Positions 770 to 38,692 of a DNA stretch of 64,000 bases are shown here, piece by piece (position 1 is the first letter of the stretch; every line of letters starts with the position of its first letter). Location: NCBI GenBank assembly GCA_945865755.1, contig CAMBFS010000002.1, forward strand, positions 355 to 64,354, in the 5' to 3' direction. The notes beneath the pieces were generated by a model that ran no database searches, was not told the origin of the DNA, and worked only from the letters and a program-made list of their open reading frames with translations. The translations under genes were made by a program, and so were the position numbers. Origin of the DNA: Klebsiella pneumoniae. GTDB taxonomy: Bacteria > Desulfobacterota > Binatia > Bin18.

Positions 770-1519
770 ATGAAGAGTCGGAGGAATTGGGGACTTTTGG
801 GGCTGAGTGTCTTGTTCATGGTGGGGCAACAATCAATCTCGTACGCCCTCACGGCGGAGGAAGTCGTGGTCAAGCAGGCGATCGCCGAGACCATGACACC
901 GGAGGAACTGGCCGCGTACAAGGCACGGGTGGCGGACTATTTCTCTCGCCACCCCTCGTCATTGCCGGTCATTCCGCAACTCCCCGCCGACATCTGTACC
1001 GCGGCGACTCCTGAGATCGATCCCGCACTCCCCTACGGACCAATCGCGGATACCACAGTCGGGGCAACTGACCATTTTGATCTGCCCCCCGACGTTGCCG
1101 CGCCGACGTGTACCGCGACGACGAGCTGCAACGGGGATGGTCGCCCAGGGAGCTTACCGCGCGGGAGCATCTATACCGGCACGGGCCTGGGCCCCGACCG
1201 GGCCTGGCGCATTCGGACGAGTGCGAACTGCAACTTGACCATCACCATGGATCCGACGGGGGCGCAGGACCTGGCGTTGATTGTGTATCAAGCCAATTGT
1301 TCGAGCTCGTTGGCGGACTGCGCGTGCGTGGACGACACCGGACGTGGCGGAGTCGCGGAATCGGTGACGCTCGGCGCGGTGGCGGGGACCGATTACTTTA
1401 TCGTCGTGGATGGCTACTCGACCGGAGGCCCACCTGTGAGCGGACCGTATACGCTACAAGTGGCCGGCACGGGGTGTGCCTTGGTGCCGGTGGAGTTGCA
1501 GAAGTTTAGTGTCGAGTAG
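770..1519 (+). CDS. Secreted Cys-containing protein with PPC-like beta-sandwich domain and C-terminal PVELQKFSVE
   Basis: GGAGG SD before ATG 770; signal peptide; DLALIVY...YFIVVDGY...GPYTLQV pattern typical of pre-peptidase C-terminal-like domains. Confidence 0.75.
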   Translation: MKSRRNWGLLGLSVLFMVGQQSISYALTAEEVVVKQAIAETMTPEELAAYKARVADYFSRHPSSLPVIPQLPADICTAATPEIDPALPYGPIADTTVGATDHFDLPPDVAAPTCTATTSCNGDGRPGSLPRGSIYTGTGLGPDRAWRIRTSANCNLTITMDPTGAQDLALIVYQANCSSSLADCACVDDTGRGGVAESVTLGAVAGTDYFIVVDGYSTGGPPVSGPYTLQVAGTGCALVPVELQKFSVE

Positions 1520-35184: not shown

Positions 35185-35263
35185 ATCCGCTCCTTTGCTG
35201 TCATTCGTGTTTCGCGACTTGCGCCCTTTTTCCGATTATACTACCGTATGCCGCACAGCACTT

Positions 35264-35620
35264 ATGTTTGGCATCGGCATCCCAGAATTCCTCGTCATCA
35301 TCGTCATCGCACTGATCTTTGTCGGTCCAGAGCGATTGCCGGAAGTCATCAAAATGTTCACTAGACTTTTTGCCGACTTTCGCAAGGTCACTGACGACGT
35401 ATCGGAAGAGTTGCGCAGCGCCCGCCAAATGCTCGAAGAAGAAATTCGCCAGGCCGAACGAGAAGCCCAAGCGGAGCTTTCTCCACCCACGAGCACGACA
35501 CCACCCCCCGTGGATCAACCTGTGGGAACGCCAGTCGCCACCGTGCCGCGCGGCAAAGGGGCAATGGAACCTGGTGCCACGGGAGAGAAGAAGGAGTCTT
35601 CATCAGGAGAGTCGGCGTAG
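35264..35620 (+). CDS. tatB: Twin-arginine translocase subunit TatB
   Basis: MFGIGIPEFLVIIVIALIFVGPERLP; directly upstream of tatC. Confidence 0.85.
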   Translation: MFGIGIPEFLVIIVIALIFVGPERLPEVIKMFTRLFADFRKVTDDVSEELRSARQMLEEEIRQAEREAQAELSPPTSTTPPPVDQPVGTPVATVPRGKGAMEPGATGEKKESSSGESA

Positions 35621-36364
35621 ATGGCCGGTGATGATCGGACGATGCCGCTCTTGGGCCATTTGCAGGAGTTACGCGGGCGGCTGCTCAAGTCGCTGCTGGC
35701 GATCGCCATCGCCTTTGTTCCCACCTACCTGGCGGCGAGCGAGTTGTTTACCTTTCTCTCGCACCCGGTGTTGACCGCCACGGCGGAGGCTCCAGCGCTG
35801 GTCGGGTTAGGGCCCACCGAGGCATTCTTCACCAAGCTCAAGGTCGCGTTCATCGCCGCGCTCTTCCTGGCGAGCCCAGCCCTTTTTTATCAATTATGGC
35901 AATTCGTCGCGCCGGGCCTGCATCAGCACGAGAAGCGCTACGTGATTCCCTTCGTGATTTTTGGCCCGCTTTTTTTCTTCCTCGGCGCGGGGTTTTGTTA
36001 TCGCGTGGTGTTGCCGGTGGCGTTCGCCTTTTTTCTTGAGGAGTACAAAACCATCGGTGTCGAGCCGACCTTACGCATCAGCGAATATCTGACGTTTACC
36101 GCGCGCATGCTGTTAGCCTTTGGAGTGACATTCGAGTTACCGGTGTTCGCGTTCTTCTTCACGCGCATCGGACTGATTACGCACCAGATACTCATCCAAT
36201 TCTTTCGTTACGCGGTCGTCCTTATTTTTGTGTTGGCGGCGGTGTTAACTCCCGGCCCTGACGTCGCCTCTCAACTGCTCCTCGCTGGCCCCCTGTTGCT
36301 GCTGTATGCCATCAGCATTGGCGTGGCGTATGTCTTTGGGAAAGAAGGGAAAAGCGAGGCTTGA
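35621..36364 (+). CDS. tatC: Twin-arginine translocase subunit TatC
   Basis: MPLLGHLQELRGRL, PTEAFFTKLKVA, YQLWQFVAPGL...EKR, FGVTFELPV, TPGPD. Confidence 0.96.
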   Translation: MAGDDRTMPLLGHLQELRGRLLKSLLAIAIAFVPTYLAASELFTFLSHPVLTATAEAPALVGLGPTEAFFTKLKVAFIAALFLASPALFYQLWQFVAPGLHQHEKRYVIPFVIFGPLFFFLGAGFCYRVVLPVAFAFFLEEYKTIGVEPTLRISEYLTFTARMLLAFGVTFELPVFAFFFTRIGLITHQILIQFFRYAVVLIFVLAAVLTPGPDVASQLLLAGPLLLLYAISIGVAYVFGKEGKSEA

Positions 36365-36421: not shown

Positions 36422-36691
36422 CTACTCGTTACTCACGACTTGCTTCATCAGCCAATCGTCCTGCTCGATAGGGGGCGGGATTTCGTACCATTCCATTTCG
36501 TCACGAAGCGAGTCCAGCACTCCTCGGACATGCTCGATAGCATCCGGCATGGCGAGGACCGCCACAGTCGCCCTTTTTCGATCCAGCGTGCGGACAATGC
36601 CAATGCCTTCATACGACTCGACCACGAACTTGAGCAGGGCAATGTCTTCACGCCGGAGGCGGAGGTAAATTTCGATGAGATCCATTGGCAT
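36422..36691 (-). CDS. DUF4911 domain protein
   Basis: REDIALLKFVVESYEGIG.VRTLD pattern. Confidence 0.8.
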   Translation of the reverse strand: MPMDLIEIYLRLRREDIALLKFVVESYEGIGIVRTLDRKRATVAVLAMPDAIEHVRGVLDSLRDEMEWYEIPPPIEQDDWLMKQVVSNE

Positions 36692-36823
36692 GTCCACTCT
36701 CCGGGTACAGTAATGACTGAGTTTGATGTCAATCGCAAGGATTGCGGCCACCTGGCATCCATCGCTGTGGTCAGCCCGATCGCGCCATCGGTGGGAAGCG
36801 TCACCGGAACTTGCCTCCCTCCC

Positions 36824-38692
36824 CTACTCCACCTCAAACGACTGCAACTCCACCGGTAACGCGGTCACGGTCAGCGTCACCGCAGTTCTGGTGTAGCCGA
36901 TCTGCAACGTGCGACCATTGAACGTGAGGGAGTTGCCGTTCGCCAAGCCGTTGAACGTGCCGGTGACGCTGGTCGCTGATACGATGGTGAAGACGTCGTT
37001 GATGGCTGGCGGGACGAACGCGCCGGTCAGCACCAAATCCACGCCCTTGAGGTCCACAATGCCCGCGACGTTGAGTTGTGTGTAGTCGGTATCGACCGTG
37101 GGGCCAACGATATTGATATTCAGATCACTGCCAAACGACACGGTATCGGCCTTGATGTCCGTGCCGGCGCGAATGGGTTTGACGGCGGCTGGGGTAAGGC
37201 CAGGATCAAGCAGCAACGTGCCCCCGCTGGTGTTGACTTGGCCACCACTCAGCACCACGTCACTACCGGAAATCAGTTCCACCACCGTGGCCACGCCGAA
37301 CCGGATGATGTCGGCGCTGACTGTGAGGGGGCCACTGGTGATGTTGCCGATCTCCAGCGTGCTCGCCGTGACTTGATCTAACTCCGCATCGGTGAGGCCC
37401 AGGGTGAGCGGGCTGCCGCTGAGCACATCCGCGCCACCGAGGTCAATCAGCGTGCCCGCCGTGCGCGGTTGGAGCGTCACAAGGCCAGTACCTGCGGTGA
37501 TGAAGCCAGGAGAGGAGATGTCGATATTATCGCCAGTGAGCAAAATCGGGGCGGAGGTGATGGCCGTGGTGATCTCGCCGCTTAACTGCACGACAAGGGC
37601 CTCGCTGTTGGCAGTGCCGGTCCCCGTGACGCTGACAGTGCCGCCGCCCGAAGTGATCTGCGTGTTCGCCCCATCTACATATACGCCATAGTTGATGCCT
37701 CCCAAAGTAGCCCCACCGGCGCCGGTAACGGTCACCGTCCCGGTGCCGCCCGCGCTGATCTGGCCCGCAACGAGTAGAACCACGCCGGCGTTGCTGTTGC
37801 TGGCCCCTGTGCCGCCTCCCTGCCCGGTGACGTTCACAGGGCCACCGCTTGAAGTGATCCGCGTGTTCGTCTCTTGTACATTCACGCCAATGTTTTGGTT
37901 CCCCCCGGTGGCCCCACCGGTGCCGGTGACGGTCAGCGTCCCGCTTGCCCCCCCACTGAGCACAGCGCCACTTTGCAGCGTCACTCCGTATTGCAAGCCA
38001 CCACCATCATTCCCACCACGCCCCTGTACCGTCACATTCCCCGTCCCCGTTGCTTCCACCGTCGCGGCGTTGATAAGAACGCCGTCGAAGCTGCCAGAAG
38101 TAGCCGTGGCTTGCTGGTTGGCTTCGAGGAGGATGTTGCCGTTGACGGTCTCCAGGGTGGAGTCGAAGGCGACAGTGATATTGCGGCTGGCTCTGGCGGC
38201 GATGCCCGCGCTCCCAGTGAAGGACGAAGCGCCATTGAAGGTGATCGTTCCGGCGCTCGCCTCGTCGAGCGTGACGTTGAAGGTGTCGCCGTAGGTGTTG
38301 GCCCCACTATCATTGAAGGTCGCCGTGCTGCCAGTCGCCGAGTCGGTGAGGTTGATGGTGTCGAACACCCCAAGTCCTGCCGCCGTCACCGTGAGCGTGA
38401 CCGTGCCATTGCCTGTGACGTTGACGCTATCAGTGCCGCTCCACGTGCCGACCGTCAAGGTCAGCGTGTAGCTCGTGCCGTTCGAGACAATGGCCACGGC
38501 TTCGCTGGCGGTGTTCAGATTAAGGTTGAGCTGCGGTGCGGCCTCGGTAAAGGTTGCCGCCTTGGCCAAGGTGGCGGTGCCTAGCAGCAGTACGACAACG
38601 GCAGCGAGCAAGGCGCGGACGGGTCGGGTGAGGCGGTGCGACTCGTCACGAGAGATTGAGAGATTGAGAGATTGAGAGAAGGTCGTGCGCAT
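36824..38692 (-). CDS. Secreted Thr/Gly-rich beta-helical adhesin-like protein ending LPVELQSFEVE
   Basis: Signal peptide; repeated GTVTVTG.GG units; LGLTDAELDQVT; DYTQLNVAG.VDL...DVFTIV...GTFNGL; AAGGAG SD. Confidence 0.85.
   Translation of the reverse strand: MRTTFSQSLNLSISRDESHRLTRPVRALLAAVVVLLLGTATLAKAATFTEAAPQLNLNLNTASEAVAIVSNGTSYTLTLTVGTWSGTDSVNVTGNGTVTLTVTAAGLGVFDTINLTDSATGSTATFNDSGANTYGDTFNVTLDEASAGTITFNGASSFTGSAGIAARASRNITVAFDSTLETVNGNILLEANQQATATSGSFDGVLINAATVEATGTGNVTVQGRGGNDGGGLQYGVTLQSGAVLSGGASGTLTVTGTGGATGGNQNIGVNVQETNTRITSSGGPVNVTGQGGGTGASNSNAGVVLLVAGQISAGGTGTVTVTGAGGATLGGINYGVYVDGANTQITSGGGTVSVTGTGTANSEALVVQLSGEITTAITSAPILLTGDNIDISSPGFITAGTGLVTLQPRTAGTLIDLGGADVLSGSPLTLGLTDAELDQVTASTLEIGNITSGPLTVSADIIRFGVATVVELISGSDVVLSGGQVNTSGGTLLLDPGLTPAAVKPIRAGTDIKADTVSFGSDLNINIVGPTVDTDYTQLNVAGIVDLKGVDLVLTGAFVPPAINDVFTIVSATSVTGTFNGLANGNSLTFNGRTLQIGYTRTAVTLTVTALPVELQSFEVE

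Follow-up and report, generated by a model that had tools for sequence, protein, structure and literature searches.

A C-terminal PVELQxFxVE motif of exported proteins, a candidate sorting or docking tag that matches the strand absent from a co-occurring FN3-like protein

Tagged genes of the window

The window (64,000 nucleotides) corresponds to positions 355 to 64,354, forward strand, of contig CAMBFS010000002.1 (C2:355-64354). It belongs to assembly GCA_945865755.1 (3.7 Mb, 228 contigs, 57.6% G+C), which is labelled Klebsiella pneumoniae (GTDB lineage: Desulfobacterota, Binatia, Bin18). Two genes of the window encode proteins that end with the same ten-residue motif, PVELQxFxVE, directly followed by a stop codon. 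This motif is called the tag, and proteins that carry it are called cargo. The features are given with their coordinates and strand.

770..1519, +: cargo gene 1; open reading frame (ORF) with its translation, 249 amino acids from the ATG at 770
1487..1519, +: tag PVELQKFSVE and TAG stop of cargo 1
36824..38692, -: cargo gene 2; ORF for a secreted repeat protein (adhesin-like), 622 amino acids
36824..36856, -: tag PVELQSFEVE and TAG stop of cargo 2

Cargo 1 ends ...GTGCALVPVELQKFSVE and cargo 2 ends ...TLTVTALPVELQSFEVE, each before a TAG stop. Signal-peptide-like N-termini are found on both (cargo 1, MKSRRNWGLLGLSVLFMVGQQSISYA; cargo 2, ...RALLAAVVVLLLGTATLAKA). Cargo 1 includes, in this order, a signal peptide, a helical N-region, a Cys-rich beta-sandwich (PPC-like) and the tag. 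Neither cargo is matched by any Pfam or NCBIfam model, and therefore no common domain is visible. The sequence-only reading had described two proteins with signal peptides and with no likeness beyond their last residues; this description is confirmed. A third tagged protein of the assembly, a P-domain/DUF11 repeat protein encoded on contig C116, ends PVELQSFEVE, then TAG. The type A C-terminal domain (CTD) of the secretion system of type IX (T9SS; PF18962/TIGR04183) is not matched by either cargo of the window, and the part common to both is 10 residues only.

All ORFs of the 3.7-Mb assembly were scanned, and no internal (non-terminal) copy of the motif was found. Looser tail patterns matched only the three tagged ORFs and the C-termini of NusG in this genome. 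The NusG-like ORFs (contigs C85 and C113; ends ...FGRATPVELDFLQVEAA and ...FGRATPVELDLVQVEKA) were rejected as tagged proteins: their register is different and they are cytoplasmic, so the likeness is attributed to chance.

Occurrence of the tag

The pattern P-V-E-L-x-x-F-x-V-E plus stop was searched in 41 genomes of the window's class. Of the four congeneric genomes, the window's own included, three have it, and it is found nowhere else among these relatives; the reversed control pattern gives 0 matches. Each of the three tag-positive congeners has 3-5 copies, on at least six unrelated protein families. At least 117 tagged loci were found when each species was represented by one genome, in records that bear the labels Acidobacteriota (Thermoanaerobaculia, Holophagae, Vicinamibacteria), Lysobacterales (Dokdonella, Rhodanobacteraceae), Methylomirabilota and 'Deltaproteobacteria'. 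The motif is thus found on many proteins of many genomes and is not limited to the pair from which it was first proposed as an undescribed sorting signal.

The tag is always at the extreme C-terminus of exported proteins. Among the matches listed in the species scan, a true stop directly follows the motif in 117 of 118. When the next codon was left free, TAG, TAA or TGA was found after all 88 matches in 49 genomes (control count, 0). The general form is [VI]-P-V-E-L-x-x-[FIL]-x-[VI]-[ED], at times with 1-3 extra residues; the residue that precedes the Pro is Val or Ile in 92/118 among the matches listed. A crude signal-peptide test was positive for 85 of the 99 complete tagged ORFs versus 191 of 935 control ORFs, and several tagged ORFs scored 'negative' by this test have visible signal peptides. 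The motif is therefore enriched on proteins with signal peptides and is not equally frequent on cytoplasmic ones. The tag codons vary synonymously (Val, GTC/GTG; Leu, CTG/TTG/CTC/CTT). It is thus the peptide that is under selection, and this variation rules out conservation of the DNA itself, as in a mobile cassette.

The domains upstream of the tag differ between cargo families. More than 200 homologues of cargo 1 were found, nearly all with PVEL-type tails. Variants include PVELQQISIE, PVELLDFTIGD, PVSLQSFSVEN and PVELQSFEVGKK; a few homologues end otherwise. One of them, P0069, ends ...SDLIFKDGFQT in place of the PVEL tail. Single-chain AlphaFold2 predictions were made for cargo 1 and, as described below, for the partner protein. 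In the model of PPC-like cargo 1 (108 homologues, pLDDT 83), the last strand of the domain is at residues 226-233 and residues 240-249 are coil. The tail is thus predicted to be free and not part of the cargo fold, which argues against the motif being the last strand of a shared domain.

Stop codons at tag ends are biased. TAG is used by 59/99 tagged genes versus 131/453 other genes of the same loci (60% versus 29%; binomial p=2e-10). There is an excess of TAA too, at the expense of TGA. The excess of TAG may reflect selection for tight termination at the exact C-terminus. Recoding or read-through of the stop was rejected as an explanation, since TAG, TGA and TAA are all used and the downstream frames are not conserved.

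Short tandem motifs, e.g. GCAAAAGGCAAAAATCAAAAGG and GGAGTCTGGGAGTCT, are found 3' of the stop in several tagged genes of the genus. The loci are G000 C116, G001:C450, G003:C112 and G003:C181.

Endings at the tag position and an uncatalogued FN3-like domain

Homologues of the C-terminal module of the adhesin (cargo 2) have various endings at the same place: the tag (P0122), IPTL-CTERM (P0123, P0126, P0128; confirmed by TIGR04174), the Por_Secre_tail of the T9SS (P0146) or a dockerin. Such interchangeable endings at one position form a 'choice of anchor' pattern, as expected of a sorting signal.

P0124, another adhesin homologue, has at the tag position a whole domain of ~100 amino acids that resembles fibronectin type III (FN3) domains, PLAVTLATFEAVQTAEGVVVLWETVSELHNLGFNLYR...YWLEDVDTYGVTTMHGPV, followed by a membrane anchor. 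The domain reads PLAVTLATFEAVQTAEGVVVLWETVSELHNLGFNLYR...YWLEDVD...HGPV. It is covered by no Pfam or NCBIfam model. Separately, a trial domain consensus was compared with both libraries and matched none of their models. Strand A, the first of the P0124 domain, is the part with which the tag aligns. Intact domains of other genomes have LLVVLRSFTAE, LAVELESLTAE, LSVELASFTAD or LPVELSSFTA at this place, and the spacing from their Phe/Leu to the Trp of strand B is constant (13 residues). The likeness of the tag to the PVEL..F element of T9SS cargo in Bacteroidota, pointed out in the sequence-only reading, is borne out by P0195, which has intact 'LPVELSSFTA...W.TE.E' domains upstream of a Por_Secre_tail.

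The acceptor protein

The P0124 domain was compared with all six-frame ORFs of the window's genome. A single significant match was found (E=1.7e-10), outside the window.

contig C167, 939-1373, -: acceptor gene; small secreted protein, found by homology to the P0124 domain

Acceptor: name coined in this analysis for a small exported FN3-like protein with strands B to G. The alignment of the C167 protein begins at domain position 19, i.e. at strand B, and the acceptor therefore lacks the strand that the tag resembles. Orthologues share one plan: a signal peptide (about half of the orthologues listed have a lipobox), an Ala/Pro/Glu-rich linker, the FN3-like core and the end of the protein. The core reads '..NTLKW[TS]TASEV[DE]NFGFD[IV][YF]R...YYYY[IV]ESIS..G[VI]RE.F[ST]P..', after which the protein ends. 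In all orthologues the linker leads straight into the core, with no strand A.

In the AlphaFold2 model of the acceptor (20 sequences), the pLDDT of the core is >90; coil is predicted for residues 1-18, and NVIRWST forms the first strand. With this model as query, Foldseek returned FN3 domains as all of its top PDB matches (E about 3e-3, TM-score 0.5-0.68). One of them, 4m6a, is an FN3 scaffold whose chains exchange their N-terminal strands. The acceptor is accordingly judged FN3-like from the features of the seven-stranded sandwich, including the Trp of strand B and the tyrosine corner of strand F, only strands B to G being present. No Pfam or NCBIfam sequence model matches the acceptor, and its sequence gives only weak matches in the PDB: 3mpc (Fn3-like, E=0.11) and spurious ones to PEDF. 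Searched against 1.84 billion representative proteins, the acceptor profile matches ~100 clusters when E<=1e-30 is required, and 4564 clusters with the looser limit E<=1e-10. Of its best 150 matches, 110 are proteins of <=260 amino acids, mostly with one profile match each.

The register of tag and acceptor was counted from the Trp (W) of strand B. The tag ends at W-10 and the conserved sequence of the acceptor begins at about W-8. A scoring matrix was derived solely from strand A (W-19 to W-10) in 17 intact domains. The 112 tags score a mean of +12.9 bits (minimum 5.8), versus a mean of -14.3 bits (maximum 8.5) for 1485 control C-termini; only 10 of 514,944 control 10-mers reach or exceed the median tag score. 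On the favoured explanation, the tag corresponds to strand A/A', with which an uncatalogued FN3-like domain begins, in detached form.

A tag equal to the first strand of a longer domain, with TAG over-represented at its end (60% versus 29% of background ORFs), could also be a functionless remnant of premature stops in that domain, or the start of a domain whose stop, mostly TAG, is read through. This explanation is highly improbable. All three stop codons occur, and the downstream sequence is neither conserved nor coding for the remaining strands. Despite synonymous changes, different phyla have retained the peptide, and it tracks the dedicated gene module described below.

A second family of small secreted proteins or lipoproteins with an FN3-like sequence (..L.W.A..E..YGY[LI][VI]YR..GPF.R[VI]N..) is found in the same genomes (loci L172-L185 and L188, e.g. 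G048:C2:1153207-1153464 and G085:C78). It also starts at strand B. Its members may be acceptors for another class of tag.

Four metagenomic proteins (P0272, P0292, P0320, P0330) are parvulin-type peptidyl-prolyl isomerases (from Pfam for P0272 and P0292) with SurA/PpiD-like N-termini, as judged by eye. Their C-terminus is an FN3 domain of the acceptor type, again with strand A missing. A periplasmic chaperone may thus be a further recipient of tagged proteins.

Co-occurrence of tag and acceptor

The acceptor was found by homology and not by its distribution, which is thus an independent test. Among the 41 genomes of the window's class, the acceptor is found in the three tag-positive genomes (G000, G001, G003; 94-96% identical) and in 0/38 tag-negative relatives, where the best E value is 5e-7. 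An orthologue is found in 45/46 tag-positive genomes of other phyla (E 1e-25 to 1e-42, 50-69% identical).

Two samples of genomes were examined for both. Lysobacterales (the order of Dokdonella; 201 genomes): 32 genomes are acceptor-positive and 19 tag-positive, with an overlap of 18 (Fisher p=4e-16), i.e. the acceptor is found in 18/19 tag-positive versus 14/182 tag-negative genomes. The tag-positive genome without acceptor owes its status to PVEFTTIKIE in AT-rich DNA, probably a chance match. Acidobacteriota (251 genomes): the acceptor is found in 4/4 tag-positive genomes, with 2-20 tags each, versus 0/247 others; none is discordant (p=6e-9).

The gene module

The acceptor gene is usually part of a module of three genes, the other two encoding a GT-C (PMT_2) glycosyltransferase and a C25 cysteine peptidase. 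The C25 protein adjoining the acceptor has 830-1100 amino acids; its match to PF01364 covers model positions 1-374 (E 1e-73 to 1e-85). The catalytic-type motifs [VWL]GHGG and CYSA are invariant in three orthologues. The full-length match and the catalytic His and Cys place the protein in family C25 (PF01364). Its best NCBIfam match is the T9SS sortase PorU (NF033707; 183-198 bits, E 1e-54 to 1e-58). The curated cut-off of this model is 420 bits, so that the two proteins are related and are not equivalogs.

The window's sequence had suggested a search for a protease or membrane protein family distributed like the tag, and both the C25 peptidase and the GT-C protein share its patchy distribution. 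C25 orthologues are found in 45/46 tag-positive genomes and in G001 and G003. The GT-C protein, a PMT_2-type membrane glycosyltransferase, has an orthologue in 34/46 tag-positive genomes and in the g1 genus. Both are absent from the 30 tag-negative relatives searched (29 relatives and G002). C25 and acceptor genes are directly adjacent in ~30 or more genomes (coordinates read by eye), and the GT-C gene mostly belongs to this cluster too. Two Lysobacterales genomes have the module next to genes for an ABC-2 exporter and for a GT2/GT1/sulfotransferase protein, which indicates a glycan-synthesis cluster. Tagged genes are often located within ~15 kb of the module, e.g. as convergent neighbours (G085:C10) or abutting a gene for a C25 paralogue (G069:C12). 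Tag, acceptor, C25 and GT-C thus co-occur and are chromosomally linked.

Natural fusions exist. C25 and acceptor are fused in P0211 and P0269 (acceptor domain C-terminal) and, in reverse order, in P0249. P0265 is a single chain with a PPC-like cargo, ..CIITPVELQAFDIA.., a loop and ..TITWSTASEIDNFGF.. / TITWSTASEIDNFGFDVYRG...; P0263 includes cargo, tag and acceptor-type domain in one chain, with the canonical spacing. Therefore the tag motif and an acceptor-type sequence can form one domain in a single chain.

Reading of the tag by housekeeping machinery must be weighed against these data. A short, amphipathic peptide at the extreme C-terminus of an exported protein could be a general envelope signal, either a beta-signal for the beta-barrel assembly machinery (BAM) or a C-terminal ligand or degron for PDZ proteases such as DegS or Prc. 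The tag ends with Glu/Asp and not with the terminal aromatic residue of a beta-signal, and the cargos are soluble domains, not barrels. Most genomes with BAM and PDZ proteases lack the tag, whose distribution instead goes with a specific accessory module. Such a general signal is very unlikely.

A direct reading of the tag by the peptidase has more in its favour. The tag could be a linear recognition or cleavage motif of the PorU-like C25 enzyme, the FN3-like protein having another role, e.g. as an adaptor, a substrate, an inhibitor or a glycan carrier; the likeness to strand A would then result only from descent from a truncated C-terminal FN3-type domain. C25 tracks the tag as tightly as the acceptor does, and cleavage of C-terminal signals is a known activity of PorU (PMC4560394). 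Truncation is a plausible origin, since G085, which is one of these genomes, also encodes intact FN3-type C-terminal domains. Three features are left unexplained: the strand present on the cargo is precisely the one missing from each acceptor orthologue, the tag stops two residues short of the conserved start of the acceptor, and tag and acceptor are found together in single-chain proteins. Direct reading is considered rather unlikely.

Proposed function

PVELQxFxVE-COOH is probably a protein-sorting or docking tag. The tag would dock into the acceptor by strand complementation, after which the C25 enzyme would process or anchor the cargo; this mechanism is the favoured one, with reasonable though not strong confidence. 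Sequence and model evidence provides what donor-strand complementation calls for, namely an acceptor without a strand and a donor peptide that matches this strand. A recognition strand for beta-strand addition had been among the roles suggested from the window, and the match of tag and strand A, the acceptor without strand A and their co-occurrence support it. That tag and acceptor physically bind, that the cargo is cleaved or transferred, what the glycosyltransferase does and where the cargo ends up are inferences.

The cargo would be exported by Sec. Its C-terminal strand would enter the open edge or groove of the acceptor and complete the beta-sandwich (donor-strand complementation). The acceptor, often a lipoprotein, has an Ala/Pro-rich tether, and the cargo could thereby be tethered to the envelope, or the junction presented to the C25 enzyme. 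This enzyme may cut the tag off and, by analogy with PorU, might also pass the cargo on, either to a glycan or to a different acceptor.

Several findings weigh against this proposal. Fourteen acceptor-positive Lysobacterales genomes have no tag under the pattern used; they may carry variant tags. G056 is tag-positive and has neither acceptor nor C25 nor GT-C. In the window's genome the C25 ORF (C167, 142-936, -) stops after 264 codons, i.e. encodes the N-terminal part only; at 142 nt from the end of the contig it gives way to unrelated sequence. A frameshift splits the GT-C gene (C167, 1281-2841, +) into two frames. The module may be decaying or misassembled in this genome. The acceptor of G001 and G003 is no obvious lipoprotein. 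The second FN3-like family also lacks strand A, so that the fold may be stable without it. No route across the outer membrane was identified for the cargo.

A more specific version of the docking proposal is a T9SS-independent 'split C-terminal domain' sorting. The cargo would carry one strand of an FN3-like sorting domain, an envelope-tethered protein would supply the other six, and only the reassembled sandwich would be recognised by a PorU-like C25 transpeptidase. The tag would be removed and the cargo covalently attached to a glycan or glycolipid made with the help of GT-C, then displayed at the surface. This version is tentative and more doubtful than docking itself. A reading like the type V pilus, with non-covalent strand insertion after protease action, is as open as PorU-like transfer of the cargo to a glycan.

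Comparison with known systems

T9SS CTD and PorU. PorU attaches cargo to anionic lipopolysaccharide (A-LPS; PMC4560394, PMC7468200). The type A CTD (PF18962/TIGR04183) and the tag are both C-terminal signals on Sec-exported proteins with unrelated heads. Common to both systems are a beta-sandwich signal domain, a C25-family enzyme (here with PorU as best NCBIfam match) and a genomic link to glycan synthesis; an adhesin-module homologue has the Por_Secre_tail at the place of the tag. The CTD is a domain of ~80 residues, whereas the tag is a single strand of 10 residues, and a second protein would provide the remaining sandwich in trans. Against the PorU cut-off of 420 bits, the C25 proteins reach 183-198. 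The translocon SprA/Sov was searched with PF14349 (SprA_N), which matched in 0/49 tag-positive genomes, but also in 0/14 control genomes, so that this negative has no positive control. The T9SS belongs to Bacteroidota; the hosts of the tag are Acidobacteriota, Lysobacterales, Methylomirabilota and a 'Deltaproteobacteria' genus.

Type V pilus (FimA/Mfa1, Porphyromonas). The pilin is made as a lipoprotein precursor and is processed by a C25-family protease (gingipain). The groove left by the missing N-terminal strand is filled by the C-terminal strand of another protein. These features are shared with the system proposed here. In the pilus the strand is cut off, whereas the acceptor is encoded without it. 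The donors here are many unrelated cargos and not pilins, so that no polymer is expected.

Tripartite signals (LPXTG/sortase, PEP-CTERM/exosortase, IPTL-CTERM, MYXO-CTERM/myxosortase). These signals are like the tag in their position and in the kinds of cargo, and IPTL-CTERM is found on sister proteins at the place of the tag. The patchy distribution, common with a dedicated processing enzyme, is also shared. Unlike them, the tag has no membrane helix or basic cluster, the stop being found directly after the motif in 88/88 matches. The candidate enzyme is a soluble C25 peptidase and not an intramembrane or membrane-bound sortase.

Chaperone-usher complementation, SpyTag/SpyCatcher and FN3 strand swapping (4m6a). 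A short strand from another chain completes an Ig/FN3-like fold in all of them. They involve pilus subunits or engineered proteins, whereas the split would here be natural and would sort diverse cargo.

Full-text literature searches on the motif, on PorU-like enzymes outside Bacteroidota and on new sorting signals found no description of the system. If the proposal is true, non-Bacteroidota diderms have a mechanistically new route to sort, tether or process exported proteins, through the completion of a domain in trans. It would give a function to an uncatalogued FN3-like family, to PorU-like C25 peptidases outside T9SS organisms and to many 'hypothetical' secreted proteins of Acidobacteriota and Lysobacterales. 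The system is testable with peptides and recombinant proteins, and a natural pair of a 10-residue tag and a ~90-residue catcher could be a laboratory tool.

Neighbouring genes

A contig-context search for the proteins of the window gave no usable context. Among the 117 loci listed, the neighbours of tagged genes include no universal family, and no partner emerged from them. Those that recur are TPR-repeat Ser/Thr kinases in 20 loci, sulfatase-like proteins in 11, ABC exporters in 8, and certain secreted proteins. Kinase-TPR genes are directly beside tagged genes in ~20 of the listed loci, and a kinase gene is also found 3' of the acceptor gene in Holophagae-type genomes. The kinase and sulfatase-like neighbours may simply belong to families that are abundant in these genomes.

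In the window, Tat-like genes (by eye, a TatA/B-like N-terminus, then a TatC-like ORF) are found at 35195-36364 (+); ~460 nt separate them from the gene for the tagged adhesin, which lies on the opposite strand with its 3' end towards them. The leader of the adhesin has no twin-arginine motif. An ORF matching DUF4911 (Pfam; 36422-36751) is located between the Tat-like genes and the adhesin gene.

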